A DNA stretch of 64,000 nt from Pseudomonadales bacterium. Lineage in GTDB: Bacteria; Pseudomonadota; Gammaproteobacteria; Pseudomonadales; GM7GCV1. The stretch spans positions 188,924 to 252,923 of the forward strand of contig OZ244871.1 in assembly GCA_965221105.1 (NCBI GenBank), given 5' to 3'. Below, one piece after another: positions 969 through 63,081 of this stretch; position 1 is the first letter of the stretch, and every line of letters starts with the position of its first letter. The notes beneath the pieces are model-generated. The model did not search any database, had not been told where the DNA came from, and saw nothing but the letters and a program-made list of their open reading frames with translations. The position numbers and the translations under genes were made by a program.

Positions 969-2210
969 TTACCGCTCAGTCTTCTTAAAGAGAATTGTTT
1001 TCAGGTGGTCCTCTGTCGATTCAAACACTGGTTCGTTTCGGTTTTCGCTTTTCATAAGAGGTACTACTTTTGTACGCACACCCATACCTCTTGCTTCGAC
1101 ATATCCAAAATCCTTCAATATATCAACAATGAGTACATTTCGAGGCGATCGCTGACCCGCTATCATTTTCTCAACAGTCATCGAGTTCTGCATGGCACCC
1201 GGGCTCATCACTTCGAGACGATCTGAGTAGCACGTAATCTCAATGTCCGTAAAGCGCGTCCAGTCACGATGGACGATTGCATTGACCACAATTTCCCTGA
1301 CTGCCTCAATCGGGTAGTGCCACATTTTTTCCCGCTTCATACCCTCATCAATAGTCTTGCTTTCCTCAGAGATAAACGGCTTCAGCCTTTGAATGACACC
1401 TTCGACAATGCCACCTGATACAAATTTTCGTTCACCTTCAGGTTCCAATTTCCAGTGACCAACCATTGGCATATCCAGTACCTCATCCAACACCGCCCGG
1501 TACGCTCTATCTGCTCCTTCAAATACCATCAATCTGACGCCAGCTTGTCTAAGATGTCTTCTGGGTCTATATCCAAACAAAAGTAATCCGGCCATTGTGC
1601 ATACAGGTGCAGCACCGACTTTATTGATGAGGAACCCTAAATCAAGCAGGCGGCGTATCCATCCCTCTTCAGAGGACGGGAAGCCTGGATCCTCCATAAC
1701 ATTTTTAATGTAATCCTCAACTCTTTCTATGTGCAGAGATTCAATAGAAGTACCTGAAACAGGAAGCGTTTCAGCATGAAGCATTCCCCCTACTTCAAAT
1801 AGGCGGGCCTGCTGCTCTCGGGTAGCCAATCTTGAAGTACTGCCAACTCGTATGAATATTTCTTCTCGATCAGAGTGGCGACGTACGTAGGGTTTAGATA
1901 TCCCTTGCTCAAAAGATACAATGGCAACCCGTTTAACATCGTCTACCTGAATTTCCTGATAGGACGGAAGAATCAGCGGATGAATCTTGCGTGCAACCAC
2001 ACCATCCATTATCCATTCTTCAAGGTCTTCTCTTTGAATTCCGCCGATTTCACCGTCATCTTCAACACCAAGGAGAATCATCCCACCACGGTGATTAACC
2101 ATAGCAACTATCTCCTTGGCTAGCTGCTCCGGCCGACAATCATCGCGCTTGAATTCCACACCAGAGTTCTCTCCATTACTGATGACTTCAAGCAAATCTG
2201 TCTTCAACAT
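969..2210 (-). CDS. AlbA_2 (Schlafen-like) + HATPase_c_4-like + wHTH protein (often annotated 'putative DNA-binding / RecG-like')
   Basis: ORF 969..2507 is trimmed to Met100 (ATG at 2210) because the upstream part overlaps the 3' end of the preceding gene. Motifs: NSGVEFKRDD...GGMILLGVEDDGEIGGI (N-terminal) and AVREIVVNAIVHRDW...LEVMSPG (C-terminal). It lies 25 bp downstream of 2236..4872 on the same strand. Confidence 0.8.
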   Translation of the reverse strand: MLKTDLLEVISNGENSGVEFKRDDCRPEQLAKEIVAMVNHRGGMILLGVEDDGEIGGIQREDLEEWIMDGVVARKIHPLILPSYQEIQVDDVKRVAIVSFEQGISKPYVRRHSDREEIFIRVGSTSRLATREQQARLFEVGGMLHAETLPVSGTSIESLHIERVEDYIKNVMEDPGFPSSEEGWIRRLLDLGFLINKVGAAPVCTMAGLLLFGYRPRRHLRQAGVRLMVFEGADRAYRAVLDEVLDMPMVGHWKLEPEGERKFVSGGIVEGVIQRLKPFISEESKTIDEGMKREKMWHYPIEAVREIVVNAIVHRDWTRFTDIEITCYSDRLEVMSPGAMQNSMTVEKMIAGQRSPRNVLIVDILKDFGYVEARGMGVRTKVVPLMKSENRNEPVFESTEDHLKTILFKKTER

Positions 2211-2235
2211 AAATGCACTCTGGTACTCGTAACGA

Positions 2236-4872
2236 CTAAAACCCGTATTTTTCCTTACGCTGCACAAACGCAGTTCTGCCGCCCTCGAGGATGTCTGCTG
2301 CACTTTCTCGAATATTTGCGAGGTCAATGGAGCCCTGATGCTCCGCTGGCAAGTTCGCTTTTGAATCCAACACACTAAAGACACCAATCCACTCCGCGTC
2401 TCCAAAGACTGGTATATTTGCATTGTGGGTGGCAAACAAAAATTGCCGCTTGAGTTTCGCATCCCGTAACTCGACGACAATACGGTCTGCAATAAACGCA
2501 TTATCAAGATTGTCTTCGGGCTGATCGAGAATCAAGGGATCTCTGTTGTCAAGAAGTAAAAGATGTAAGATTGCCGTGCACTGCTGACCCGTCGACACAC
2601 GACCAAGTAAGCGGTAATTTTCTTTCCCTGCATGCGATACATTCAATTCAATGTTCACTGTATCTTTCAGTTCAAGAGTCTCCAACTCATAGAGTTGCGC
2701 TGATGTACATCGATACAATGCAGCAGCGACTGAAGGGGTAATGCCCCAGCTCATGGCTTGCAGCACATCACTGCCTTCCCGGATTGCTTGTGCGAGGGAA
2801 ATCGGGCTCAAGTCCGCTGCCTTATCGACCCAAGCCAACCGTTTCTCACCGATGCCATCAAGCTTTTGCAGGAATCCTTTCAGTTTTGAGCGCTCCCCTT
2901 CAGGATCCATTGATATCCTCAATTTTCCAGCAAGGCGTTTATTCAAATTTTTAAGTACCACTTGCACTTCTTTCGTGCGTCTGGCGCGACTGTCTGACAA
3001 CTCTGCCAAAAGATTGGCTCGCTGCTGCAGAAGTTCCAGCTTCAGTTTCTGCTGATGCTCGAGTTGAGACCTCAAGGGTTTGGTTGCTTCAATTTCCTTC
3101 AGCAACCGCTGGTACGTCAGCCCTATTTCACGACCACTCTTCCCCTCCGACTCTGGCAGCTCCTTAAAGGCCTCTACTAACTCCCCTTCTCTCTGTTTAA
3201 TTGAGGTACAAAGCTTATCGCTCAAATTGTTAACGTCTTGCCGCGCTTCATTGAATCTCTCGTCTGTTGACTTCAGCGACATCTCCACTTTCTGCTTTAG
3301 GTTGGCCAAAACCTCTCTCAACTCCTTCAGCAGATCACGGTCAGGCAATCCGTCTAGTGCTTTATCACTCAGAAAAACCAAATCAGGCAAATCTTCACGC
3401 AGCTGCTGAAGTGACGCCCCCACACGATCAAGTTCTTCTTCAACCCGTTTCCGAAGATTTTTCTCACGCTCAAGCAGGGGTGTAATTTCCAATGTATTTT
3501 CCAGACCCAGCGCTTTACATTGTCGTGCCTGTTCTTCTAAACGTGGAAGCAGCGCTACCCTCATTTCAATTTCTTCGATAGCATCTTCTGCCTTCAACAA
3601 TTTGTCCTTGTTTGCCAGCAGTTTTTTTTGAATCTCTCCTAATTTCTCCTGACCTTTGGTTTTTTCGGCGGGCAAAAACCTTTCCAATAGCCGAAACTGG
3701 CTTTCACGATCCTGGGCTATTTCATATATTTCGTTCTGACCATAGATTTCAATCCTTGGGAGAAGATCCAATGGCCGAAAATTCGACACATTACCGCTAT
3801 CGTCCCGAACAATCGCGCCTTCCCCATAGCGGCGCGAAATTATGTACCGATTTCCATGAAAGGCTGAAGATCGAACCGTCAGTTCCACTCGTCCTCTTTC
3901 TTTCCCCAGATTCTCCTTCAGTATCTCCTCATGCTGTCTTCTGGCGTCCTTTCCCTTGGGGAGAGTTTCTAATGCATAACGTATACACTCGAGTAATGTA
4001 GATTTTCCTGTTCCTCGTCCGCCAATGACTGTATTCAGATGTTCGGAAAGTAGAATTTCAATCCCATCAAGATACCCGCCATCAAACCTGATACTTTCAA
4101 TTTTTGAGAAATACTCCTTCGGAACATCTGTATGAAGTCGAACCCGAGAATCCGGGTCCAGAAAAGCCATCTTGAACGACTCAAAACAGGGACGGGTCAT
4201 CTTAATCAGGCATGAGGCTTCAGGCTTCTTCAGGTCATCAGGCTTCGCTACGTCCTGTGCATTGATTATTACGATTGGATGCTCACGCTGATAAGCATCA
4301 TTTTCATTCATCACAATACTTTTAAATTTTTCTGGTAGCGCACTGACAGAGCCGGGTATTTGTGCAGCCTTCAGTTCTCGCGAACACCACACATGATTGA
4401 GCTTTTTTTTCAAAACACCACTGTCACTGGTAACGTGTGCTGCAAAGCAAAAACCACCTAAATTGTTAGCACACTGTATCAACTCTTCTGCACCTAAGCC
4501 CGATGGCCTTACTCCATCTTGTGGATCAACCAGGCCCAGCTTCCCAAGGTAGCGATTAAGTTGAGTTGTCGTTACATTTTCCGGGAACAGGCATACAAAA
4601 TGAGCTTTCTCTGTGGATGAGACCTCAAATCCCGGGAATACAGTAATGCCGCTTCCACTAAACAAATTGCGAATGTCATCTATAGTGTCCACATTGCCAT
4701 GATTTGCTAAACCCACGACCTTAATATCTTCCTGCAGACATATCTCCAGTAGCTGTTGGTTGTATTCTTTTTCTGACATTCCATGATCCTGGCCTCGATA
4801 AGATATGTATCCTGAGGGGTTTACTTGCAGGGCACATTTCCAGAACCGTGCAAAAGTGTGGCATTCCATCAT
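2236..4872 (-). CDS. PHP-like N-terminal domain fused to a Rad50/SbcC/SMC-like coiled-coil ABC ATPase
   Basis: 878 aa. The N-terminal ~270 aa show a PHP-like pattern (GLANHGN, FPGFEVSS, HFVCLFP, FAAHVTSDSG). This is followed by Walker A GGRGTGKST and ~300 aa of charged heptad-rich sequence. Then come the signature-like STGQQ, Walker B PLILDQPEDNLD, and FLFATHNANIPVFGDAE. Confidence 0.85.
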   Translation of the reverse strand: MMECHTFARFWKCALQVNPSGYISYRGQDHGMSEKEYNQQLLEICLQEDIKVVGLANHGNVDTIDDIRNLFSGSGITVFPGFEVSSTEKAHFVCLFPENVTTTQLNRYLGKLGLVDPQDGVRPSGLGAEELIQCANNLGGFCFAAHVTSDSGVLKKKLNHVWCSRELKAAQIPGSVSALPEKFKSIVMNENDAYQREHPIVIINAQDVAKPDDLKKPEASCLIKMTRPCFESFKMAFLDPDSRVRLHTDVPKEYFSKIESIRFDGGYLDGIEILLSEHLNTVIGGRGTGKSTLLECIRYALETLPKGKDARRQHEEILKENLGKERGRVELTVRSSAFHGNRYIISRRYGEGAIVRDDSGNVSNFRPLDLLPRIEIYGQNEIYEIAQDRESQFRLLERFLPAEKTKGQEKLGEIQKKLLANKDKLLKAEDAIEEIEMRVALLPRLEEQARQCKALGLENTLEITPLLEREKNLRKRVEEELDRVGASLQQLREDLPDLVFLSDKALDGLPDRDLLKELREVLANLKQKVEMSLKSTDERFNEARQDVNNLSDKLCTSIKQREGELVEAFKELPESEGKSGREIGLTYQRLLKEIEATKPLRSQLEHQQKLKLELLQQRANLLAELSDSRARRTKEVQVVLKNLNKRLAGKLRISMDPEGERSKLKGFLQKLDGIGEKRLAWVDKAADLSPISLAQAIREGSDVLQAMSWGITPSVAAALYRCTSAQLYELETLELKDTVNIELNVSHAGKENYRLLGRVSTGQQCTAILHLLLLDNRDPLILDQPEDNLDNAFIADRIVVELRDAKLKRQFLFATHNANIPVFGDAEWIGVFSVLDSKANLPAEHQGSIDLANIRESAADILEGGRTAFVQRKEKYGF

Positions 4873-49165: not shown

Positions 49166-51514
49166 TTACCCCTTGCCAATTTGGTCGAAGGGCAGACCTT
49201 TGTCGGGACGGTAATCTTGAGGCAGGCCCAGTACACGCTCAGCGATCGTATTACGCAAAGTTTCGTCTGTACCGCCAGCTATTCGAGCGGAAAGAATCGA
49301 AAGCCAGGTGTTTTGTGGTGTGACCGTTATGCCTCTAGGGTCAGGCGGCACTTCGAGTCCTGATGCTCCCATCCAGTCCATAGCCATGGAAGATAGTCTC
49401 TGTTGCTTGCTTATCGTGGTCAGTTTGTGAATAGCCCCCTCAGGCCCGGGCTCTTCGCCTGCCACCAATGCTGCGAATGCTCTGTCTTTAATCGAGGTGA
49501 GGCCTTGCTCCTCAATATAGGCTTCTGCAATAGCATGCTGAACAGCTCCGTCCTCGATTGCAGGTTGGCCATCCACACTGGCCGAGACAGCCATATCGAT
49601 GTAATCCGTAATTTTTGGACCGTAACCACTGACATCCGACGCAGAAAAACGTTCGAGCATTAAGGTTTCCAAGGCAACTCTGAAACCTTCGCCCACTTCG
49701 CCAAGACGTTGGTTATCTGGTACGACGACGTCATTGAAAAAGACTTCGTTGATTTCTGATTCGCCATGAAGCTTACGAATAGGTCGAACTTCGATGCCCT
49801 GAGAACGCATATCAATAAAGAAAAATGTCAAGCCAGCGTGCTTGGGTACCTTGGGGTCTGTGCGAACGATGATGATGCCGTAATCAGCGTGCTGCGCATG
49901 TGAAGTCCATACCTTTTGGCCGTTAAAAATCCAGTTGTCACCATCTTTTCTGGCGCTCATGCGCAATCCGGCAAGGTCCGAGCCCGCAGCGGGTTCCGAA
50001 AATAGTTGACACCAGATGGTCTCACCTCGAATAGCGGGAGGCACATACTTTAATTTTTGCTCTTCGGTGGCGCGTTTCAGCATAATGGGTACAGGCATAT
50101 TCTGGGATATGATGAACAGGCTGCTTGGTGTGTCGTACCTGAGTTCTTCTTCGCCAAATATCACCTTCTCAACATGGGTCCCACCGCCGCCGCCGAATTC
50201 TTGAGGTTGTGGAATGCATGCGTAGCCATTGTCTGCCAGTAAAGCCATCCATTCTCGAGCTTTGATCAGGTATTCTTTCTCACTCAGTCCCGCAAGCTTT
50301 TTAGAAGTGAAATTCGGCGCGTGTTTTGCCAAGAACTCTCGTGCTTTCTGACGGTATGTTTCTGCAGGTGTTTGTGGGTCGACAATAGGTTCAAAGCCCG
50401 AATCTTTCTCCGCTGATTGATCCCGAAGCGCTGCGATTAACCGAGAACGCCAATAGGGTGCACCGCCAAGCTCTATACTGAGGCTGCGGCCACGCCGGTA
50501 ATAAAGATGGCAATCTGCTTCCCAGGTGACTCCGATTCCGCCATGAATTTGAATGTTCTCTTTGCCGGCATAATCTGATGCCTTAATCGCGCCCAATCGT
50601 GCGGCAGCAGCCCGCTTACTGAGAACGATGGGGTCTTCTTTCGAGATGCTGTCCAAAGCGCGGTAGGCACACCCTCGAGCGAGCTGGTTGTAGGCATACA
50701 TGTTGACGAGGTTGTGCTTGACCGCCTGAAATTTTGCAATTGGCTGACCAAATGCCTGGCGTTCTAATGCATATTCCCTCGCCATTTCGAGGCAAACATC
50801 AGCGCTACCGATTTGCTCAAACGCGCTGGCAATGGCTGCTATGTCTAGCACCAACTGCAATGCTGCTTTTCCTGTGCCTTCAATGATTTGCGCATTGGCT
50901 TCATTAAAATTGATATCTGCGATGTTTCGGTTGTTGTCTAGATATTCTTTGGTAGTTCGTTCAATGCCATTGCCGTCCAAATCAACCAGCACAAGCACAC
51001 CTTCAGAAGCGCCGTCTGTAGCTGCGTAGACCACAGCAGTGTTTGCAACGGCTCCGCCAACAACACCACTTTTTTTGCCTACAAGTTTTCCGTTTCTGAA
51101 ATGCGTCTCTGGGTTAATCGGAATCCCGGATTCCTGACCTTCGGCAAACGCCAATGCACCTATTAATTCACCTGTGGCGAAGCGAGGCAAGTACCTGTTA
51201 CGTTGCGCTTCATTTCCCCAACGAATAAGTGCTTCGGTGACAGAGGTTATTGAAGATATGAGGGGAATAGCGGCTGCCACGCGTCCGAGTTCCTCGGCAA
51301 TGAGGCACACTTCAGTGAGGCTCATCCCAAGGCCGTCAAACTGTTCAGGAATAGTGATGGCTGGCCAGCCCATTTCAACAACTGAATGCCACAGATCCCT
51401 ATCCAAATGTTCATCGGCATCCAGAAACCCCTTTAGTTTTTCCGCCGAGAAGCTGTCTTTCAACAGGCGCTGCGCTTGGTCGCGGATCATCAACTGCTCT
51501 TGATTAAGTTCCAT
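49166..51514 (-). CDS. Fused double acyl-CoA dehydrogenase
   Basis: 782 aa. There are two ACAD-like halves (..WPAITIPEQFDGLGMS.. and ..GETIWCQLFSEPAAGSDLAG..), each with the C-terminal helical domain. Confidence 0.85.
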   Translation of the reverse strand: MELNQEQLMIRDQAQRLLKDSFSAEKLKGFLDADEHLDRDLWHSVVEMGWPAITIPEQFDGLGMSLTEVCLIAEELGRVAAAIPLISSITSVTEALIRWGNEAQRNRYLPRFATGELIGALAFAEGQESGIPINPETHFRNGKLVGKKSGVVGGAVANTAVVYAATDGASEGVLVLVDLDGNGIERTTKEYLDNNRNIADINFNEANAQIIEGTGKAALQLVLDIAAIASAFEQIGSADVCLEMAREYALERQAFGQPIAKFQAVKHNLVNMYAYNQLARGCAYRALDSISKEDPIVLSKRAAAARLGAIKASDYAGKENIQIHGGIGVTWEADCHLYYRRGRSLSIELGGAPYWRSRLIAALRDQSAEKDSGFEPIVDPQTPAETYRQKAREFLAKHAPNFTSKKLAGLSEKEYLIKAREWMALLADNGYACIPQPQEFGGGGGTHVEKVIFGEEELRYDTPSSLFIISQNMPVPIMLKRATEEQKLKYVPPAIRGETIWCQLFSEPAAGSDLAGLRMSARKDGDNWIFNGQKVWTSHAQHADYGIIIVRTDPKVPKHAGLTFFFIDMRSQGIEVRPIRKLHGESEINEVFFNDVVVPDNQRLGEVGEGFRVALETLMLERFSASDVSGYGPKITDYIDMAVSASVDGQPAIEDGAVQHAIAEAYIEEQGLTSIKDRAFAALVAGEEPGPEGAIHKLTTISKQQRLSSMAMDWMGASGLEVPPDPRGITVTPQNTWLSILSARIAGGTDETLRNTIAERVLGLPQDYRPDKGLPFDQIGKG

Positions 51515-51612
51515 AGAGTTCTACCACTCAGTTACATTTTAAAAATTTAGACTGAAGCTCCAAATAGCCACCTGATGAAGTGGCAATTGAAGTTACTAAA
51601 GAAAAATTAATT

Positions 51613-51859
51613 GTAACTACTCACCCCCCTTGACACCACAGGAAAGGGGTTCTCTGGTGTGTGCGTTTCATTATTGCACAGGGTAATGGGCAACGACGCA
51701 TATTTTGGTTCCAAGGCGACAGCGGGGGTGTGTCAGGCACTGATCGCACTGATGCCGCTGGCGGAGCGCCTGGCGGTGCTGGCGGCGGTCAACACCGCGT
51801 CGCTGCGCTCGGAGTTCGACGCACTCAAGGCGCGCTTCGAGGCGCTGTGTGCGGACGGC
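51613..51859 (+). mobile_element. IS66-like left-end fragment (247 bp), truncated by the IS256-like element
   Basis: GTAACTACTCACCCCCCTTGACACC... through ..ASLRSEFDALKARFEALCADG coding. The left flank is AATTAATT. Confidence 0.8.
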
Positions 51860-53238
51860 GAGTTATAACCAAATCTGGTGTATGAGGCATTGAAAAAAGG
51901 CGGCGTATCTGGTTGATGTGTTTTTGGCAAACACTACTCAACACAGGAGATACGCCACCATGAGCCAGAGTACTCTTGTTGAGTATGCAGGTCGAGCAGA
52001 GAGTCCCGATCCAGTGACCGAGCTGTTGAGAACCAGCGCCCACCAGCTGCTGTATCAGGCTGTGGGTGCCGAAGCCGAGGCGTGTGTTGCCGGTTATGAG
52101 GATCAGCGCCTGGCGGACGGACGCTTCAGGGTCGTGCGCACTGGGTATCAACCGGAGCGGGCGATACAGACCAGCCGTGGACCGGTGAGGGTTCGGATTC
52201 CCAAGGTGCGGTCGAGGGATGGTGCGCCGGTCACTGTCCGCTCGGCGCTGGTGCCGTCCTCTGTGCGCACACCCACAACGCTGGAGGCGGCCGTGCGCTG
52301 GGTGTATCTGAAGGGTGTGTCCACTGGCGAGATGGGCGCTGCGCTGGAAGTCCTGGTTGGCCCGGAGGCCAAGGGTGTGTCAGCCAGCACGGTATCGCGG
52401 TTCAAGCGCAGCTGGGCGCAGGAATACCGGGCGTGGCGCGAGGCGCCGCTGTACAAGGATCGCTGGGTGTATGTCTGGGCTGACGGCGTGGCGGCCTCAG
52501 GGCTGAGCACGCCACGCTCTGTGCCCTGGTGGTGATTGGCGTCAATGAGCGCAGTGAGAAACACTTCCTGGCGATTGAGGACGGGGTTCGGGAATCGACC
52601 CAGAGCTGGCGGGAGGTACTCTTGAGGCTGAAGTCGCGAGGCATGAATGTCCCCCAACTGGCCATCGGCGATGGTGCCATGGGCTTCTGGGCCGCGCTGG
52701 AGGAGGTCTCTCCAGAGAGCCGGCAACAGCGATGCTGGATGCACAAGACCATGAATGTGCTCAATGGCCTGCCCACATCGGTCCAGCCGAAGGCCAGGCA
52801 GGCAGTACATGAGATCTGGCAGGCCAGTACGCGGGAGGATGCGGAGCGGGCGTTCGACCTGTTCCTGGAGACCTGTGAGCCCAAGTACCCCAAGGCCGCC
52901 CTGTGTCTGGAGAAGGATAGGGATGAGCTCATGGCCTTCTACGATTTCCCGGCGCAGCACTGGCAGAGTATACGGACGAGCACTCCGATCGAATCGACCT
53001 GTGGCACGATCCGCCACCGCACCAAGCGATCAAAGGGCTGCCTGACCCGGGATGGCATGGTGCATATGATGTTCAAGCTGGGCATGTGCGCTGAGGGCAG
53101 ATGGCGCCGAGTGCGAGGCTTCGACTCCCTGGCGAAGGTCAGTACGGGAGTGAAGTTCACAGACGGAATTGAGGTGACAGCAGACAACCAGGTCGCCGCC
53201 TGATTCAGTGTCTCACACACCACTTTTGACAATAACTC
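51860..53238 (+). mobile_element. IS256-family element (1,379 bp)
   Basis: Imperfect ~35-bp IRs: GAGTTATAACCAAATCTGGTGTATGAGGCATTGAA versus the reverse complement of 53204-53238, GAGTTATTGTCAAAAGTGGTGTGTGAGACACTGAA. No target duplication is visible. Confidence 0.8.
51960..53203 (+). pseudogene. IS256-family (Mutator-like) transposase with a frameshift near 52480-52530
   Basis: ..RWVYVWADGV.. then ..LCALVVIGVNERSEKHFLAIEDGVRESTQSW...QRCWMHKTMNVLN... in the next frame. Confidence 0.8.
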
Positions 53239-53445
53239 CTGCGATTCCAGCAAACTGTTCTTTTAGGAAGTCTTCATCCAGGTGAACGGCATCTCGAAGA
53301 GTGAAATCCGAGTCTTCAGAAAAGCGGTAGGTTTCAAAGTAGCATTTTTTTAGGAAGGTACCGCCTTTAAAGACCCATGATCCAGAAAATACATCATGTG
53401 CATTAACTGCTGCCAAAAGCCAGCCGAGGACGTAGTCTTTTTCAA
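53239..53445 (-). pseudogene. abiEii: AbiEii/AbiGii-family nucleotidyltransferase toxin, internal fragment (codons ~24-92)
   Basis: EKDYVLGWLLAAVNAHDVFSGSWVFKGGTFLKKCYFETYRFSEDSDFTL.. It is cut by the tnpB unit at 53446 and by IS256 at 53238. Confidence 0.75.
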
Positions 53446-54740
53446 GGGAATTATATACCTATTGACACAGGCTACTGTTCTATGCGGCACGACGGGTACT
53501 CCCGCCGATCAATTCACCATCAGGCCGCATATCGGGGACATTCCCACCCGACGAGCCACGCTCCCTGATGTTGAGTGCGGCATTCAGGTCTCTATCGAGA
53601 CTCAAGCCGCACTGTTCACACTCAAAGACTCTGTCCTTCAGGGTCAGTGATTCATGGACTGAACCACAGCCTGAACAGGTCTTCGATGTGTTCCTGGGAT
53701 TCACCTTCACAACCGACCCACCGGCACTCTCAGCCGTGTAGGTCAGTTGTTGGATAAAGGTTCCCCATTGTTGCTCAAGGAGTGATCGGTTCAACCCCCG
53801 CTTGTGATTGCCACCATGGGCAGTCATGTTCTTGATCTTCAGGTCTTCAACAGCGAAGTGTCTGTGTCGCCTCACCAGGTCAGTAGTCGTTCTGTGCAGG
53901 GCAGTGCGCTGTCTCTCTGCGACCCTGTACGCCTCTCTGGCCAGCGATTGGCGTTTCTTATATCGGTTGTGACTGCCCCTCTTGGCTTTACTCAGTTTTC
54001 GCTGAAGCCGCTTCTGTCGGGTCCTATCAATGACCACCTTCGGCACTGACTCACCGGTCGAGAGGGTGGCCCGTGCCTTCACGCCAACATCAATACCGAC
54101 GACGGGAGACTGATCAGCCACGACCTCCCGCTCCTGCTCACAGACACACTGAACCATGACGCGAACAGGTGTTGTCACAACGCGAACCAGCGTGATCTCG
54201 CCCTCTGGCAGAGCCTTCACAATGAACCTGCCACAGCCCTTGATCTGTACGGCATGCCTCGTGCCAGACGCGAAGAGACGAAAACTGGATGTTTCAAATG
54301 ACCGGATGCCCCGGTGCCTGCCCTTGAATCTCGGAAAGCCACCCTGCTTGAAGAATCGCTTGAATGATCTATCCAGTCTGTACAGGACAGATCGGAACGG
54401 CAGCACCCCATACCCCTCAATTTCAGGATCATCATGGCGAAGAGCCGTGAATGACGTACATTGATCGTAGTAGCTGATAGACACGCCCGCCTTCCGATAC
54501 GCATTGATGCGCTCATCAAGGGCAGCGTTGTACAGTTGGCGAGAGAGATACAGGAATCTGTTCAGCCGCTGATGTGTTGCGGCTGACATCTTCGCCTGTT
54601 GACTGTAGGTGCGTATCATCCGCATCGGTGTGGTCGCTCCATCAAGCGTTTGGGGTGGTTGCTGCACACAACCTTCACGCACACTGATTCCAGTGCCTGT
54701 CCCTGTCAAGACCCTGTGTGTCAATAAGTATATAATTTCC
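53446..54740 (-). mobile_element. 1,295-bp tnpB-only unit with terminal inverted repeats and an 8-bp target duplication
   Basis: TIRs are GGGAATTATATACCTATTGACACAGG (53446-53471) and the reverse complement of 54713-54740, GGAAATTATATACTTATTGACACACAGG. The direct repeat TTTTTCAA is at 53438-53445 and 54741-54748. Confidence 0.8.
53480..54625 (-). CDS. tnpB: TnpB-like RNA-guided nuclease (OrfB_IS605 + zinc ribbon)
   Basis: 381 aa with RuvC-like GIDVGVK, FAVEDLKIKNM, DRDLNAALNI and zinc ribbon CSGCG...CEQCG. The start is set at MRMIRTY because the ORF-track extension runs into the TIR. Confidence 0.85.
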   Translation of the reverse strand: MRMIRTYSQQAKMSAATHQRLNRFLYLSRQLYNAALDERINAYRKAGVSISYYDQCTSFTALRHDDPEIEGYGVLPFRSVLYRLDRSFKRFFKQGGFPRFKGRHRGIRSFETSSFRLFASGTRHAVQIKGCGRFIVKALPEGEITLVRVVTTPVRVMVQCVCEQEREVVADQSPVVGIDVGVKARATLSTGESVPKVVIDRTRQKRLQRKLSKAKRGSHNRYKKRQSLAREAYRVAERQRTALHRTTTDLVRRHRHFAVEDLKIKNMTAHGGNHKRGLNRSLLEQQWGTFIQQLTYTAESAGGSVVKVNPRNTSKTCSGCGSVHESLTLKDRVFECEQCGLSLDRDLNAALNIRERGSSGGNVPDMRPDGELIGGSTRRAA

Positions 54741-54809
54741 TTTTTCAACAACTGGCGGCCTAAGACCTGTTTCGTCAGCAACGGCAATAATTTCTTCCCG
54801 AGTAATCAC
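54741..54809 (-). pseudogene. abiEii: AbiEii toxin, first 23 codons (GTG start 3 nt after the abiEi stop)
   Basis: VITREEIIAVADETGLRPPVVEK. Joined to 53445 it restores ..VVEKDYVLGWLL.. Confidence 0.7.
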
Positions 54810-54812
54810 AAG

Positions 54813-55601
54813 CTATAGCCTTTTGGTCGCCCATAGTCGCCATTTGGTAATGAGGTTATTGTCTTTAGTGTTTTTATCGAGAAAGGTATAGCCTGTTGTG
54901 AGATTAGCCGCGCATTCATCAACAAAAGAAGCGTCAAATTCGAGTTTTTCAGCAAGAAATCCCAGTTTTTTAAAGAGCGCACCATTGCTCAAATGTTTGG
55001 CATGGCTCAGGAGTTTTTCAAGACCTTTCTCGTCGCCATATAGTTTTTTGAATTCTAATAGGCAATCTACGGTGTGCTGCAATCCCGCCCCTAAGTACGG
55101 ATCGTCAATAATATCCAGGATCGTTTTCTGCGGATCGGAGATCTGTAGTTTCTTATTGCCCCGCCAAATCGTTTTGGTGCCGAATAGGTTTTTCTCCGGG
55201 CAGTATTTGATATAAAAATTAATGCCTTGGTGCTTGGTTTCGCCGTAGGGTGCGCGTTTACTGGTAAGCACGCACACTGATCTAAAGAGTTGCTCCGTCA
55301 GTTCCCAATGTTCGAGCGCACTCCATCCCCCGATGTATCCGGGTTCATATAGCTCAGGTACGAGAATCCAAGGATCATCGAGAACTTGGGTCTGCCCCAG
55401 GGCGTTGGGTTGAATGGGTACGTAAAGCCCTCGTGCAACACGCCTGATCGCACCTTGCTTGTGCCAGCCAGCTAGCAGTTTTGCTGCGTGCGTGCGGTCG
55501 AGATCAAGGACTTCCATCGCATCATCTATGCGGATAGTGCCGACTGTAGCGCGCATCAGAGCGGCTAAACGCCGCTGCTTTGATGAGACTTGATCAGACA
55601 T
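54813..55601 (-). CDS. abiEi: AbiEi-family antitoxin/transcriptional regulator
   Basis: It has an N-terminal wHTH (..AAKLLAGWHKQGAIRRVARGLYVP..) and a C-terminal AbiEi domain. The start is set at Met7. Confidence 0.75.
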   Translation of the reverse strand: MSDQVSSKQRRLAALMRATVGTIRIDDAMEVLDLDRTHAAKLLAGWHKQGAIRRVARGLYVPIQPNALGQTQVLDDPWILVPELYEPGYIGGWSALEHWELTEQLFRSVCVLTSKRAPYGETKHQGINFYIKYCPEKNLFGTKTIWRGNKKLQISDPQKTILDIIDDPYLGAGLQHTVDCLLEFKKLYGDEKGLEKLLSHAKHLSNGALFKKLGFLAEKLEFDASFVDECAANLTTGYTFLDKNTKDNNLITKWRLWATKRL

Positions 55602-55762
55602 AAAACTATAAAAAAACACACATTATTCGTTATTATAAAGAATACCACGTTACTTGATATAGCGCTATATGAAAAATCAATAAATTCTATATAATAGCGA
55701 ATAATGTGTATTATCGTATAGTCATGCCGGTCCCAACGGCACTCCCATTGGGATGAAACCAA

Positions 55763-57006
55763 TTATGGGCATCTCTATTAATTGCCCGAAAATGTTCAGA
55801 TACGCTGTATCCTGATTACTATGTGACAGGCTCATGACTCTCAGTATTTTCGGTTCACTTGATGACCTTCAAGATAGGCGTTTGGATGCATTGGGTGTTC
55901 CTTTGGTTGAGTTATCCAATACGACTGACTGGGAGTCATTTCGTCCTATTGTGTCCCAATTAGAAAAACGATCTGGCACAAGTAGAGCAGGTGCCCCCCG
56001 TAAGGATGTCGTGATGATGTTCACAGGGCTGATCATACACGACCTCTATGGGTTGAGTGATGACCAATGGGAGTTTCAATGAGAAGACCGACGGAGCGTT
56101 CAGCGTTGTGTAGGGTTGAAGCCTGAGCATAGGGTGCCTGACGCACAGACTTTTTGGGCATGTAAGGAACACCTGACTCGGCTGGAGTTCATTCGGCCCC
56201 TGTGTGATGTGTTTTCAAGTCAGCTCAATGACTTGGGTTATCGGGCGCGCACAGGTCCATTAGGTGATGCGAGTTGTGTACCTGGTCCTATCCAGCGTAA
56301 TAGTCGTGAAGAGCATGCGATCCCGATAGAGTGGTCACAGGATCACAAGCGCCGCCAGAAAGACACCGATGCGCACTGGACGAAGAAGAATGGCACGAGT
56401 CACTATGGCTACACGAATCATGTCACTGTGGATACTCAGAACACACTGATTCGCGGCTATGATGTCAGCGACGCTCGTGTGCATGATTCGCGGGTCTGTG
56501 AAGGCCTGCTGGATGAGAGTACTAGCACCAAGGATGTTTGGGCAGAGAGCGCGTATCGCTCTGAGGATCACGAGGCCTCATTGAAGTCAAAAGGGTATCG
56601 AAGCAAGATACACCGCACAGGGAGCCGGAATAAGCCGTTGACACAACGAGAGCGGCAAGGCAAGGCAACACAACCCGCTCCAAAACCCGATGTCGGGTTG
56701 AACATATATTTGGTGCTCAGTCGTCATTGAGGAGTACATCGATTCGCTGCATCGGCATCGCCCGTGCTAAAACCGAAATCGGTTTGATGAATGTGGTGTA
56801 TACCATGAGACGATTGTGCTTTGTACAGAGGGAAGTTGCGTCTGAACCATGAGAATTGACCGATTCATTGGCAATAATCGGGATAAAAAGCCAATGTGTT
56901 GACCACAACTCATTGGTAGAGCGATTGTACGCATAAAGGATATGCCAAAATGAGCTGATTTTTTTCAGCAACCCATAAATACCTCAATTAATAGAGGTTC
57001 CCATAA
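55763..57006 (+). mobile_element. IS5-family element (1,244 bp) with a multiply frameshifted transposase (coding 55834-56850)
   Basis: 22-bp IRs: TTATGGGCATCTCTATTAATTG versus the reverse complement TTATGGGAACCTCTATTAATTG. Transposase motifs are ..MMFTGLIIHDLYGLSDDQWEFQ.., ..QKDTDAHWTKKNGTSHYGY.NHV.VD.., ..VWAESAYRS.. and ..RVEHIFG...IGIARAKTEIGLMNVVYTMRRL, spread across three frames. Confidence 0.75.
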
Positions 57007-57113
57007 GTACATATCTGTCACTGCGCTAGTGTCCGATCCCGACCCTGTCGTACAGCGTCCGGGGACGATGAACTGGGTCTGCATGGAGTGCCGATCAGGG
57101 TCGAGGGAATAGT

Positions 57114-57145
57114 TCAAACGTCCTGATCTCAGTCGCTGAGTCGGG
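57114..57145 (+). mobile_element. T-terminus family left-end stub (32 bp)
   Basis: TCAAACGTCCTGATCTCAGTCGCTGAG resembles 92-118. Confidence 0.4.
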
Positions 57146-57469
57146 CAACGCGGGCGCATCGCCAGGTCCGACGCCGAAAACCTCCCCGAGGCGCTGACCC
57201 AGTGCGACACCGAGGTGCTGCGCACCGCCGCGACCCCGACACCCCGTTCACCAACACCCGCGCCGAGCGCGATATCCGCATGGTCACAGTCAGGCAGACA
57301 GTCTCCGGGCGCGTCCGAACCCCCCGCCACGCCGAGGCCCACTGCCGAATCTCCAGCTCCCTCCAGTCCATGGCCCACCAAGGCTCCAACCCGCTCGCCG
57401 CCATCCAGATCGCCCTCAACGGCACCGCCGCCGAAATGATCAAGCAGGAGAAGGGAGACGAGTAGTTAC
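57146..57469 (+). mobile_element. IS66-like right-end fragment (324 bp)
   Basis: ..PFTNTRAERDIRMVTVRQTVSG...NGTAAEMIKQEKG plus the IR GACGAGTAGTTAC. The right flank is AATTAATT. Confidence 0.8.
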
Positions 57470-57599
57470 AATTAATTTTTCATAGAAGTTAGCCAAAGTT
57501 CCGTCCTTAATCCATCAGCCCATGGTTGGCACCAAAATTAATAGCTATACTCCTACCACTATCATACGACGAAATAATTAACAAACAGTCAATAAACGG

Positions 57600-58523
57600 A
57601 TGGTTAGAACGATGATGCCACAAAAAATAGTACTACTGACCGCACTGGTACTGACAGGTGTGTTGTTTGTGACAGATTCTGTTTCAACGGCCTATGCTGA
57701 AGACAGCGCAATTGAAAAAAAATCCCTGCCTTTGCACGCGGCGTACCATCGAGTATTACCGCTTAGGGGTGGTTCAAACTTTAGAGATTTGGGAGGTTAC
57801 CTCACTGATAGTGGCAAGCGCGTGGTACGCGGCAAACTATTTCGGTCTGGCGTGATGTCCTCTCTCACCAATGAAGATCAGCTCTATCTCAATCAATATG
57901 ACTTCAAGACCGTAGTCGATCTTCGATCGAGCGAAGAAATAGCGTTATTCCCCAATCATTGGGCGAAGGAGTCGGACATCGATTTCCTTTCCGTCGATTA
58001 CGACATCGTAAGGCTCACCGAGGACCTGATAAAGAAGCATGGAGGCCGACCAAGCATGGAACAGGGCTACCCTGAAATGTCCAAAATGATCGCCCCGCAA
58101 TTAAAGTTGTTTTTTGAGCGGTTAGTCGACGAACAGGTACCTTTAGTTGTAAATTGTTCCGCCGGACAGGACCGAACGGGTATAGCCTCTGCTTTATTAC
58201 TCAGCGTGCTCGGTGTCCCAAGAGAAGTCATTATTGAAGACTACATGCTTTCAAGTGATTTTCGCAGGCCGGAAAACGAATTAATCGGCCTGGACGAGCA
58301 AACTGCTCAGGACAGCGAATTTATGCAGATGGCCCTTCGCTACCAACCGGAAGGTGAGCATACACGGGCTCAACCATTAAAAACATCGGATGGCACCCCA
58401 TATCTTGTGTACGCACTCAACGCCATTGAATCCGAATATGGAAGCACAAACGCTTACGTGGTGAATGCTCTGGGTATAGATCAAAATGATCTCAACCGTC
58501 TAAGAACACTGTATCTGGAATAG
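57600..58523 (+). CDS. Secreted tyrosine-protein phosphatase (Y_phosphatase3-type)
   Basis: There is a signal-peptide-like N-terminus and the CX5R loop VNCSAGQDRTG. Confidence 0.8.
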   Translation: MVRTMMPQKIVLLTALVLTGVLFVTDSVSTAYAEDSAIEKKSLPLHAAYHRVLPLRGGSNFRDLGGYLTDSGKRVVRGKLFRSGVMSSLTNEDQLYLNQYDFKTVVDLRSSEEIALFPNHWAKESDIDFLSVDYDIVRLTEDLIKKHGGRPSMEQGYPEMSKMIAPQLKLFFERLVDEQVPLVVNCSAGQDRTGIASALLLSVLGVPREVIIEDYMLSSDFRRPENELIGLDEQTAQDSEFMQMALRYQPEGEHTRAQPLKTSDGTPYLVYALNAIESEYGSTNAYVVNALGIDQNDLNRLRTLYLE

Positions 58524-60990: not shown

Positions 60991-61290
60991 GTAACTACTC
61001 GCCCCCTTCTCCTGCTTGATCATTTCGGCGGCGGCGCCGTTGAGGGCGATCTGGATGGCGGTCAGCGGGTTGGAGCCTTGGTGGGCCATGCGGATATCGC
61101 GCTCGGCGCGGGTGTTGGTGAACGGGGTGTCGGGGTCGCGGCGGTGCGCAGCACCTCGGTGTCCTACTGGGTCAGCGCCTCGTGGAGGTTCTGGGCATCG
61201 GACCTGGCGATGCGCCCGCGCTGCCCGTCGAGGCGGGCGGGGGGCTTGTTCCCCTGTGGCCTGGGTGAGGATGGTCCGGTAGCGCGTGCA
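60991..61290 (-). mobile_element. IS66-like right-end fragment (inverted), with an internal deletion
   Basis: The IR is at 60991. ..PFTNTRAERDIRM is joined directly to AHQGSNPLTAIQIALNGAAAEMIKQEKG. Confidence 0.8.
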
Positions 61291-61363
61291 CACCCGGTTC
61301 ATCGTCCCGGGACGCTGTGACACCTTCGGGACCGGACACGAGCGCAGTGACAGAGATGTACTT

Positions 61364-62428
61364 ATGAGTGAAGACACACCGAAAAGACCAACTGGCCTGC
61401 CGACCACGCGGCACGATGCGCTGTTCCGCACCCTGCTGACCAATCCTGAGCGGGCAGGACAGGTCTTGCGCGATCATCTGCCAGAGCCGATTGCCACGCG
61501 TCTTGCTGCGCAGGATCCGCGATTGATCGATGGCAGTTTTGTTGATGAGGCCCTGCGCGGAAGCCAGGCCGACCGACTGTTCGAGGTGACACTGGATGGT
61601 GGCACTCCGCTGCTCATTTACGCATTGCTTGAACACAAAAGCGAACCGGACCAGAAAACCCCGCTCCAGCTTGCCGGGTATATGATCAATATCTGGAAAC
61701 GCTATGCCGATGAGCATCCAGACCTCAAGAGCCGATTGCCAGCGATCATTCCGATTGTCTTCTACCATGGTGCCGCGCACTGGACTGTTCCGCGCTCCCT
61801 GTTTGATCTGATCGAGGATGATGAGGAGATACGTCCATTCAGCCGTTCCATGGCCTATGTCCTGCGTGATATTGGTCAGATGAGCCTGGAGCAGATGTCG
61901 TCCCGCCCTGAAGTCCGGTCAGTGTTTCATGTGCTGCATATCTCGCGGCGAGACAGGATTGGGCACGAGGAACTGGCCGATATCATCGCCCCGCTTGTCG
62001 ATGGATCGGACTTGGAATCGGCCACTCTGCACTATATAGTAGGTGATCAGAAGATTACGCAGACCATGCTTGAGGCTGCGCTGCGTCAGGCGAAACCGGA
62101 ACGATGGGAGGCCCTCATGGGCACACTTGCTGAAACCTGGTTCGAACAGGGCAAAGCTGATGGGATGGCTGAGGGTGAAGCCAGAGGCAAGGCTGTTGGG
62201 ATGGCTGAGGGTGAAGCCAGAGGCAAGGCTGCTGGGATGGCTGAAGGTGAAGCCAGGGGCAAAGCTGAAACCTTCCTGCAACTGGCGCGTCTCAAATATG
62301 GCGATCTGTCCGAGCAGTGCATCGAAGCGGTGCGCATCGCCTCTGCCACGCAACTGGATCACTGGCTGCACGCTCTGCTCAGCGCTGAAACGCTGGAGGA
62401 CATTTTCAATCCTCCTCACTCACAGTGA
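61364..62428 (+). CDS. Rpn-family recombination-promoting nuclease / putative transposase (PD-(D/E)xK, YhgA-like)
   Basis: ..RHDALFRTLL...DRLFEV...IYALLEHKS...IIPIVFYHG.. The start is set at ATG 61364. Confidence 0.8.
   Translation: MSEDTPKRPTGLPTTRHDALFRTLLTNPERAGQVLRDHLPEPIATRLAAQDPRLIDGSFVDEALRGSQADRLFEVTLDGGTPLLIYALLEHKSEPDQKTPLQLAGYMINIWKRYADEHPDLKSRLPAIIPIVFYHGAAHWTVPRSLFDLIEDDEEIRPFSRSMAYVLRDIGQMSLEQMSSRPEVRSVFHVLHISRRDRIGHEELADIIAPLVDGSDLESATLHYIVGDQKITQTMLEAALRQAKPERWEALMGTLAETWFEQGKADGMAEGEARGKAVGMAEGEARGKAAGMAEGEARGKAETFLQLARLKYGDLSEQCIEAVRIASATQLDHWLHALLSAETLEDIFNPPHSQ
62162..62269 (+). repeat. Three tandem 36-bp repeats inside the Rpn gene (GMAEGEARGKA[V/A/E] x3)
   Basis: Read directly from the sequence. 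Confidence 0.9.
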
Positions 62429-62429
62429 A

Positions 62430-63081
62430 CTGAGTGCTGCCACACAGTGTCCGGTGGCCAATTGTCAGACGAGCCCTGGTCATGAGTCACACGTCTTGTC
62501 AGGACATCTGGATACTCTGAAAAGCGGAAAGGCTCTGGAGAGTGTACGTGACCCTGACCCACCCTGAGGCCCTGTTCCGCTGTCTGAAGACCGTGACCGC
62601 AGGCGCTGCATTCGGCGACCAGGCGGTTGGGCCCGTCCCCGGCGGGGCGGTCTTCGGCCCCGTGCTCGTGGCACCGGGGCGCTTCCGCGCAGTCTCGTTG
62701 GGCTCGGTCCGTGAACTCGGCAGGCCGGAGTTGTGTGAACCCTTCGGGGTGTTCTTCTCCATGAACACCGCCATCAGCACCTGAACGAGCGTCAGCAGAG
62801 CCTCGACCAGGGCGCGGCTCTCGGCGCTCATCGCGTCGTCCGCGCACAGCGCCTTGAGCGCGTCGAACTCCGAGCGCAGCGATGCCCTGTTGACCGTCGC
62901 CATGGGCGACCCGGACTCGACCGCCAGGCGCTCCGCCGGCAGCATCAGCGCGATCAGCATCTGACACACCCCCGCCGTCGCCTTGGAACCACACTATGCG
63001 TTGTCCATTACCCTGTACGATCATGAAACGCACACACCAGAGGACCTCTTTCCTATGGAGTCAAGGGGGGTGAGTAGTTAC
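62430..63081 (-). mobile_element. IS66-like left-end fragment (inverted) with the transposase N-terminal ~175 codons (frameshifted)
   Basis: The IR ends at 63081. ..MATVNRASLRSEFDALK...MEKNTPKGSHNSGLPSS.. is followed by ..LVAECSACGHGL.. (zinc-finger region) in another frame. Confidence 0.8.

Follow-up and report, generated by a model that had tools for sequence, protein, structure and literature searches.

In the study strain, the 5.9-kb unit that separates two divergent genes, one for an acyl-CoA dehydrogenase and one for a phosphatase, is bounded by a genuine target-site duplication, AATTAATT, which stems from a single old insertion of an IS66-family element. The best explanation of the unit, and one that we consider likely, is that one non-autonomous shell of the ISBst12 type inserted here once, before the study strain and its sister strain split, and was remodelled later. 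In the course of this remodelling the toxin gene of an abiE pair carried inside the shell was destroyed in the study strain, where abiEi alone is left intact as an orphan antitoxin gene.

The duplication and its setting

One copy of AATTAATT lies directly outside the left IS66-type end GTAACTAC.. (GTAACTACTCACC) and the other directly outside the right end ..GTAGTTAC (..CGAGTAGTTAC), as a preliminary description of this DNA had reported, and its core inference, that the pair is an 8-bp duplication left by one IS66-family transposition and bounding the whole unit, holds. The abiE genes, IS256, the tnpB unit and IS5, which it had placed inside the unit, were all found at their mapped coordinates (Table 1). 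Joining the flanks indeed yields a plain AT-rich spacer of 220 bp (65% A+T), and no duplication was seen on the other paired ends of IS66-like pieces in the window (the whole 64,000-nucleotide stretch that was analysed), again as had been proposed. The octamer is palindromic and rare: it occurs 15 times in the 2,769,150-bp genome (55% GC), three times in the window, and it flanks no other terminus of the IS66-type family in the genome.

Table 1. Features of the unit in the study strain (positions in the window)
Feature	Position	Strand	Remarks
Left duplication copy AATTAATT	51605..51612		Same copy in sister strain
Left IS66 end, IS positions 1 to about 259	51613..51859	+	19-bp repeat GTAACTACTCACCCCCCTT; 82% identity to reference positions 1-260; cut by IS256
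IS256-family element, 1,379 bp	51860..53238	+	Ends GAGTTATAACC.. / ..GACAATAACTC; matches to PF00872 and NF033543
abiEii toxin fragment, about codons 24-94	53239..53445	-	PF08843 E 6e-12; cut by IS256; holds TTTTTCAA copy 53438-53445
tnpB-only unit, 1,295 bp	53446..54740	-	Terminal inverted repeats of ~26 bp (GGGAATTATATACCTATTGACACA..); tnpB ORF 53480-54640
abiEii fragment, codons 1-23	54741..54809	-	Translation VITREEIIAVADETGL.. matches N-terminus of sister protein
abiEi antitoxin/regulator gene, intact, 262 aa	54813..55601	-	PF13338 22.8 bits, just below cut-off 25
abiE promoter region, then about 23 bp of unassigned sequence	55602..55767	-	Long imperfect inverted repeat 55605-55722 (118-bp inverted self-match)
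IS5-family element, 1,236 bp	55768..57003	+	18-bp terminal inverted repeats GGGCATCTCTATTAATTG / CAATTAATAGAGGTTCCC; matches to PF01609 and NF033581
rpn (YhgA-like, Transposase_31) leader, coding part gone	57004..57141	-	81-86% identity to leaders of four rpn modules elsewhere in genome
Right IS66 end, IS positions 1318-1646	57142..57469	+	90% identity to reference copy
Right duplication copy AATTAATT	57470..57477		Present in sister strain as well

IS66-family elements of the genome

In the 2.77-Mb genome the family has about 54 left termini and 52 right ones. Eight of the 2,808 left-by-right combinations have flanks that match at all eight positions, against a chance expectation of about 0.06, and all eight are adjacent, correctly oriented end pairs, this locus included, with spans of 367, 390, 501, 770, 1272, 1646, 1646 and 5857 bp; among the roughly 2,800 non-cognate pairs there is no 8/8 match. 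Because all eight perfect matches belong to cognate pairs, we conclude that the family duplicates 8 bp, a trait of the ISBst12 group. Another trait of the group, the single ORF, is found too: the 1,646-bp reference copy carries on its coding strand only one full-length transposase ORF (487 aa) and an overlapping 169-aa frame, and it has no IS66 tnpA/tnpB accessory genes. The 487-aa product is recognised as an IS66-type DDE transposase, with 219.5 bits for NF033517 'IS66 family transposase' (cut-off 180) and an E of 1.2e-35 for PF03050, and the 19-bp inverted repeats of this copy, GTAACTACTCGCCCCCCTT, are identical at 19/19 positions. Two copies of 1,646 bp keep open 487/488-aa frames together with their own duplications and could supply matching transposase in trans.

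At the locus itself both termini begin with GTAA (left GTAACTACTCACCCCCCTT; right, reverse-complemented, GTAACTACTCGTCTCCCTT), the right terminal repeat carries two private substitutions, and a C-terminal transposase scrap at 57202-57465 matches PF03050 with 20.1 bits (E 4.7e-4), under the cut-off of 23.1. The suggestion that the two ends are the same sequence variant did not find support in a comparison with the 19 other two-ended copies, where left and right identities show only a weak correlation (rho 0.32, p 0.19); two copies nevertheless rank among the closest at the left and the right end alike. In the plasmid collection the IS66 element had no close DNA-level match, and the matches to IS5 were all distant.

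The unit in the sister strain and the rpn shell

In the sister strain (2.81-Mb ENA assembly), whose flanks are about 98% identical, this unit occupies the corresponding site and has the AATTAATT duplication and the outer junctions in common with the study strain. The interior of its unit measures 4,403 bp and comprises, from left to right, IS66 1-617, a 147-bp repeat and an rpn 3' fragment; an AAA-ATPase-like gene reduced to a stub, abiEii-WYL in intact form (486 aa) and abiEi; and what remains of IS5 (88 bp), followed by the rpn leader and IS66 1318-1646. This copy preserves the older state of the unit, and the later events were read base by base from a comparison of the study strain with it. 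Since the sister shares the shell structure, the site and the duplication, we place the insertion before the split of the two strains.

The IS66 parts, which on the left comprise positions 1-617 in the sister or 1-259 in the study strain and on the right positions 1318-1646, have no positions in common. The pieces beside them are the 3' fragment and leader of a single rpn gene, arranged and oriented as in other IS66::rpn shells of the genome. One of these shells, at genome positions 2347378-2349252, has the same left junctions (position 617, 147-bp repeat, rpn module) and a 7/8 duplication, and the rpn-only sibling shell has at least two related copies. IS5 adjoins the position of the rpn start codon, and inner IS66 termini were found in neither the study nor the sister strain. 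Because the IS parts and the rpn parts are collinear, non-overlapping and devoid of inner ends, they are read as one shell and not as two IS66 copies.

IS256, the tnpB unit and IS5

IS256 has a frameshifted transposase gene (ORFs 51918-52535 and 52529-53203), lacks a target duplication at the locus and stands in place of 2,373 bp that the sister strain has kept, namely IS66 260-617, the rpn fragment, the AAA stub and abiEii codons 95-486. Its nearest copy, at genome positions 773417-774801, is 95% identical; its frame of 430 aa is open, and it is flanked by a 9-bp duplication. The loss linked to IS256 would be either an IS-adjacent deletion or the outcome of recombination between two IS256 copies. 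Duplications are absent at both IS256 junctions, as they are at the rpn/AAA-stub and IS5/rpn-leader junctions.

The tnpB unit, of which the genome holds about 21 copies and whose protein is recognised as TnpB (NF040570, 228 bits), is bracketed by the 8-bp duplication TTTTTCAA (53438-53445 and 54741-54748). At this place the sister sequence is the unoccupied site GTAGTCTTTTTCAACAACTGG, and removing the unit in silico restores the abiEii reading frame; the unit is a simple later insertion which splits abiEii in the study strain.

IS5 is present in the study genome as this copy only, and three-frame translation reveals both an in-frame stop and a frameshift in its degenerate transposase gene. The 88-bp remnant in the sister has the same ends, which are MITE-like, at the same place and fits an internal deletion there, the study strain having kept the degenerate full-length element. 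A smaller IS5 (55819-56975), at which the sister alignment had first hinted, was rejected, since the 18-bp repeats at 55768 and 57003 and the sister remnant favour the full-length element.

The abiE cargo

The abiEii fragment at 53239-53445 is 99% identical to the intact sister gene, whose product matches PF08843 (DUF1814/AbiEii nucleotidyltransferase) with an E of 1.5e-38 and, at 486 aa, also contains a fused WYL domain and perhaps a zinc ribbon, an AbiEii-WYL architecture that is common among marine bacteria. The abiEi products of the two strains differ at 3 residues, and that of the sister scores 22.9 bits for AbiEi_4 (cut-off 25) and weakly matches the AbiEi_1 C-terminal domain. An adjacent abiEi-abiEii pair exists in the sister strain, and the study strain has abiEii fragments only. 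Homology to an unrelated metagenomic abiE locus stops 143 bp upstream of abiEi and assigns sister-unit positions 1430-3825 to the cargo. A search of 10 other same-family genomes found no AbiEii-WYL, and we therefore regard the abiE cargo as foreign to the lineage. The genome contains a further abiEii piece at 344202-344666, which was considered as the segment displaced by IS256; this was rejected because the sister also has a fragment at the orthologous, P450-adjacent site, and the piece is an older paralogous remnant.

Discussion

The proposed check for an empty site in related genomes returned none, the sister strain carrying the unit at the same site. Exact scans of genome contigs with the joined flanks (38 bp) and with the left flank plus duplication (24 bp) gave no match, nor did an exact 24-bp scan of metagenome contigs. 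Orthologues of the dehydrogenase and phosphatase genes were found in none of three same-genus or seven same-family genomes, and homologues of the dehydrogenase of 49-59% identity have no phosphatase gene adjacent to them. Since no collection yielded an empty site, we infer the pre-insertion sequence from the joined flanks. The search for the 5.9-kb unit at a second site had the same outcome in the genome, in 10 same-family genomes and in a pattern scan of metagenome contigs, in which the IS5/rpn-leader junction had 0 matches. The unit is thus known from one locus, common by descent to the study and sister strains, and is only putatively mobile together with the abiE cargo.

We propose the following history. 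A non-autonomous derivative of a single-ORF element of the ISBst12 type would have transposed once into the AT-rich divergent promoter spacer and duplicated AATTAATT. Its left part would have consisted of IS66 1-617, the 147-bp repeat and the rpn module, and its right part of the rpn leader and IS66 1318-1646. In rpn, the 5' two-thirds would have given way to a chromosomal chunk of roughly 2.7 kb, made up of a 5' AAA stub, abiEii-WYL, abiEi and promoter and joined on one side to an IS5 copy. Movement would have been effected in trans by a transposase of the family, of which two open 487-aa frames remain. After the split, as the comparison of the two strains shows, the tnpB unit entered abiEii in the study strain, duplicating TTTTTCAA, and IS256 replaced 2,373 bp, and in the sister strain IS5 shrank to 88 bp.

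Was abiE already aboard when the shell inserted, or was it captured in place? We hold the two to be about equally probable. As a more tentative reading, the IS66 shell may have served as a vehicle that lost its transposase core, gained an abiE cassette and moved with this cargo in trans, a defence-gene transporter IS in a host-restricted, IS-laden genome.

Two options had been put forward for the unit. Of the second, a single insertion remodelled by IS256 and IS5, the single insertion stands and the assigned roles do not, as abiE and IS5 were inside before IS256 arrived and the tnpB unit is a simple later insertion. The first, a composite transposon with two IS66 copies around abiE, is not supported by the data, and we consider it unlikely. 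It would require that two complete, directly oriented copies of IS66 or IS66::rpn moved a chromosomal abiE via their outer ends and that two later deletions erased the inner ends, one running from the left-copy rpn to codon 18 of the AAA-ATPase-like gene and the other from beside IS5 to the right-copy rpn start. Such a history accommodates the outer 8-bp duplication equally well; the cargo is a random piece of chromosome that stops in a truncated gene on one side and at an IS on the other, as expected of captured flanks, each deletion is a mechanistically simple IS-associated event, and the donor may have been the locus where both strains have their other abiEii remnant. However, two independent deletions are needed on top of transposition, neither strain retains an inner IS66 terminus, and the IS66 parts (1-617 and 1318-1646) and rpn parts are collinear and non-overlapping, as if derived from one copy.

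An artefact of assembly, in which wrong joins at IS66, IS256 or tnpB-unit repeats produced an apparent unit, is very improbable. Dozens of copies of these repeats do exist in the genome, but the independent closed assembly of the sister agrees at the outer junctions and is collinear inside, the tnpB-unit junctions carry a clean 8-bp duplication that matches the sister empty site, the nearest IS256 copy reaches no more than 95% identity and IS5 occurs just once in the genome. Hardly credible, finally, is a chance repeat beside two independent IS66-like fragments flanking a native abiE, with coincidental octamers or a target preference for AATTAATT: the spacer is AT-rich, the octamer palindromic and the flanks of the family lean to A+T (59%), but the chance probability is about 2-4e-5 per pair, no non-cognate pair matches at 8/8, no other family terminus is flanked by AATTAATT, the octamer has only 15 genomic occurrences, a search of 10 related genomes found no AbiEii-WYL and the inner rpn fragments belong together.

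With a single shell inserted once, the locus offers a dated, stepwise example of how, in a genome swamped by ISs, IS shells may gain and carry a defence module and later wreck it, the steps being the shared insertion, the IS256-linked 2.4-kb loss, the tnpB-unit insertion and the reduction of IS5 to an 88-bp remnant. The eight duplicated pairs serve as internal controls for 8-bp duplication by the ISBst12-type family. All this is ordinary mobile-element decay which leaves known IS66 or AbiE biology unchanged, and its main use lies in annotating this genome and in providing a worked case of how nested elements decay.

Comparison with known systems

Like the AbiE type IV toxin-antitoxin and abortive-infection system, the cargo has a bicistronic abiEi-abiEii arrangement, with a 3-bp gap in the sister strain, a DUF1814/AbiEii nucleotidyltransferase domain in the toxin and a promoter inverted repeat (PMC3985639; PMC7319586). 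Different from AbiE systems, the toxin is fused to a WYL domain and the toxin gene of the study strain is split and truncated. With the ISBst12 group (ISBst12, ISDge4) the family shares a single transposase ORF without tnpA/tnpB accessory genes (487 aa here, 449 aa in ISDge4), terminal repeats starting GTAACT.CTC (GTAACTGCTCAGCA in ISDge4) and an 8-bp direct target repeat (PMC12898284). The copy at the locus departs from these elements in that it lacks the transposase core (IS positions about 618-1317) and contains foreign DNA instead. Like the composite transposons Tn5 and Tn10, the unit has cargo enclosed by terminal IS ends and a single target duplication on the outside, but it has no inner IS ends and its two IS parts sum to less than one copy. 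Transporter IS and mobile insertion cassettes, as they are known from the ISfinder literature, consist of IS ends around passenger genes and are moved in trans. The unit differs from these in being known from one locus only and in having a ragged chromosomal chunk as cargo rather than a tidy cassette, whereas it resembles them in that family ends and a target duplication enclose passenger genes with no working transposase inside, and in that apparently intact transposase frames are present elsewhere in the genome.

Results

The 5.9-kb unit lies in the spacer between divergent acyl-CoA dehydrogenase and phosphatase genes, and both of its junctions read exactly as the preliminary description had them, with one 8-bp repeat outside either IS66-like end: ..GAAAAATTAATT/GTAACTACTCACC.. 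on the left (51605-51612/51613) and ..GACGAGTAGTTAC/AATTAATTTTTC.. on the right (57469/57470-57477). The repeat, AATTAATT, occurs 15 times in the genome, a single contig of 2,769,150 bp with 55% GC, and three of these occurrences fall within the window. BLAST with the unit's two end pieces found 54 left and 52 right termini of the family in the whole genome, and the 8 bases outside each left terminus were compared with the 8 outside each right terminus (2,808 pairs). Eight pairs were identical at 8/8 positions, as against a chance expectation of about 0.06, and in each of the eight the two termini belonged to a single element, lying next to each other in the correct orientation (spans of 367, 390, 501, 770, 1272, 1646, 1646 and 5857 bp); among the approximately 2,800 non-cognate pairs there was no 8/8 match. 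Since every perfect match is cognate, this IS66-type family makes 8-bp duplications in this genome, the AATTAATT pair among them.

The full-length form of the family measures 1,646 bp, has 19-bp inverted repeats (GTAACTACTCGCCCCCCTT) and holds one 487-aa ORF, which reaches 219.5 bits with the NCBIfam model NF033517 'IS66 family transposase', whose cut-off is 180, and matches PF03050 with E 1.2e-35. It thus resembles the ISBst12 group of IS66, whose published features are one ORF, GTAA.. ends and a direct repeat of 8 bp; ISDge4 of that group has repeats GTAACTGCTCAGCA and direct repeat CCTCGATG (PMC12898284). In the unit itself the right terminal repeat carries two private substitutions, which may make it inactive. 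Open transposase frames occur in only two IS66-type copies (genome 1629550-1631195 and 1641181-1642826), which are inverted relative to each other with 10 kb between them; 26 of their 1,646 positions differ, and each copy has an 8-bp duplication of its own.

For the acyl-CoA dehydrogenase flanking the unit, a homologue of 99% identity was found on a contig of 2,814,163 bp from ENA sample ERZ25070844, here called the sister strain. The corresponding locus (L021) aligns collinearly with the window, at 96-99% identity, and carries a unit of 4,403 bp. Its left junction is identical and so is its right one (..GTAGCTAC/AATTAATT), save for a single substitution in the repeat. Because both junctions are common to both strains, the insertion is older than their split, and the sister's site is filled, not empty. 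Together with the cognate-only matches, these shared junctions bear out the central proposal of the preliminary description, namely that the duplication stems from an IS66-type insertion bounding the unit. The empty site that it had suggested looking for was not found: exact-pattern scans of collections of genome contigs and of metagenome contigs gave no match, and the sister carries the insertion. Nor was the unit found at a second locus in the genome, related genomes or metagenome contigs searched. The flanking genes encode a fused double dehydrogenase of 782 aa and a Y_phosphatase3 protein, both without orthologues in ten other genomes of the family; among the relatives searched, their best matches share 44-48% identity and come from other families of the order, and more distant dehydrogenase homologues are not adjoined by the phosphatase. 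This neighbourhood looks like lineage-specific acquired DNA.

Features of the unit, its flanks and related sequences in the two strains (window coordinates for this strain and unit coordinates for the sister, unless stated)
Feature	This strain	Sister strain	Remark
Acyl-CoA dehydrogenase	49166-51514		
IS66 positions 1-620 by BLAST		1-609	alignment puts junction at ~617
IS256	51860-53238		ends GAGTTAT../..ATAACTC
147-bp repeat		607-753	~7 genomic copies
rpn (Transposase_31/DUF4351) module, 3' part		753-1144	
AAA-ATPase_like/PDDEXK_9 gene		1147-1426	upstream region and first codons
AbiEii-WYL gene	53239-53445, 54741-54809 (fragments)	1430-2890 (L021:7013-8473)	intact in sister, 486 aa
tnpB unit	53446-54740		
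abiEi		2894-3682	262 aa
abiE promoter		up to 3825	
IS5	55768-57003	3849-3936	88-bp remnant with IS5 terminal repeats in sister
rpn leader		3936-4075	
IS66 positions 1318-1646		4076-4403	
Phosphatase	57600-58523		
Second abiEii fragment	genome 344202-344666 (L022:6203-6667)	locus L024	

Events private to this strain were read by comparing its assembled unit with that of the sister. The tnpB unit sits in the context GTAGTC TTTTTCAA (tnpB unit) TTTTTCAA CAACTGG, where the sister reads GTAGTC TTTTTCAA CAACTGG; it is therefore bounded by a clean 8-bp duplication of which the sister holds the empty site, and its removal restores the abiEii frame. The unit holds tnpB alone, between terminal inverted repeats of about 26 bp, and some 21 further copies are present in the genome, most of them matching just 53446-54655 and four to five reaching 54745. 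TnpB elements of the IS200/IS605 type normally have neither terminal inverted repeats nor such a duplication, so that a DDE transposase acting in trans may have moved the unit.

IS256, which abuts IS66 position 259 on the left and abiEii codon 94 on the right, has no duplication at its ends and occupies the place of 2,373 bp still present in the sister. The copy is frameshifted; a 95%-identical one (genome 773417-774801) keeps a 430-aa frame open and is flanked by a 9-bp duplication, AGCGCCACG. The event would be either an IS256-linked deletion or recombination between two IS256 insertions. It removed from this strain's unit the 147-bp repeat that stands between the left IS66 part and the rpn module, copies of which, at 74-83% identity, are found at genome 2558795, 1729216, 50791, 117746 and 2479445.

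IS5, the only copy in the genome, is full length yet degenerate, with an in-frame stop and a frameshift. In the sister its interior is deleted and both 18-bp terminal repeats are kept, a remnant which shows a MITE-like element in the making, through loss of internal sequence at a defined site.

Discussion

Does the unit descend from one IS66 element or from two? Its IS66 parts, positions 1-617 and 1318-1646, do not overlap. Next to them stand two remains of one rpn gene, its 3' end and its leader, ordered and oriented as in other IS66::rpn shells of this genome, in which IS66 ends enclose rpn (window 60991-63081 and genome 2347378-2349252). The left junctions, from IS66 position 617 through the 147-bp repeat to the rpn module, equal those of the latter, 1,875-bp shell base for base. 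The simplest reading would be a single IS66::rpn shell in which a block of AAA stub, abiE and IS5, without duplications at its junctions, replaced about 670 bp of rpn, its 5' two-thirds. A composite transposon, in which two IS66 copies bracketed the abiE cargo, is improbable: besides the lack of overlap, inner IS66 termini are absent from the unit of either strain, and this model requires two additional deletions whose endpoints would have to be conveniently collinear. Transposition of rpn-bearing shells seems to have occurred, as the 1,875-bp one has a 7/8 duplication. The rpn module itself (about 1.2 kb, Transposase_31 plus DUF4351) is present in four genomic copies of 96-98% identity, two within these IS66 shells and two (genome 160900-163300 and 556300-558500) apparently outside such shells.

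The cargo of the unit is predicted to be an AbiE type IV toxin-antitoxin pair of standard make, belonging to the widespread type in which the toxin is fused to WYL (PMC3985639). AbiEii, 486 aa long, joins a nucleotidyltransferase domain to a WYL domain and possibly to a zinc ribbon at the C terminus; the database contains 7,676 relatives at E<=1e-20, of which many come from marine Gammaproteobacteria. An unrelated metagenomic abiE locus is homologous, at 82% identity, from exactly the stop codon of abiEii up to 143 bp upstream of abiEi, and these limits delineate the abiE genes themselves; the abiE promoter carries an inverted repeat. In this strain abiEi is intact, with three substitutions relative to the sister, and abiEii is cut down to codons 1-94 in two pieces. 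In both strains a cytochrome P450 gene has a second abiEii fragment (codons 186-365) upstream of it. Over 311 bp this strain's fragment shares 99.7% identity with the sister's intact gene, more than the sister's own fragment does (95.6%), a hint of gene conversion. abiE may have been aboard when the shell inserted or may have been captured in place afterwards; two observations lean towards arrival on mobile DNA, namely that AbiEii-WYL was not found among the 10 related genomes searched and that the second fragment lies beside the P450 gene.

Taken together, the finding is real, but the structure is one of ordinary mobile-element decay, with IS256, IS5 and the tnpB unit nested within the IS66 derivative. 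The unit is best read as an IS66 derivative of the ISBst12 type that is non-autonomous and carries passenger DNA, and as such is of like kind to transporter IS elements and mobile insertion cassettes.
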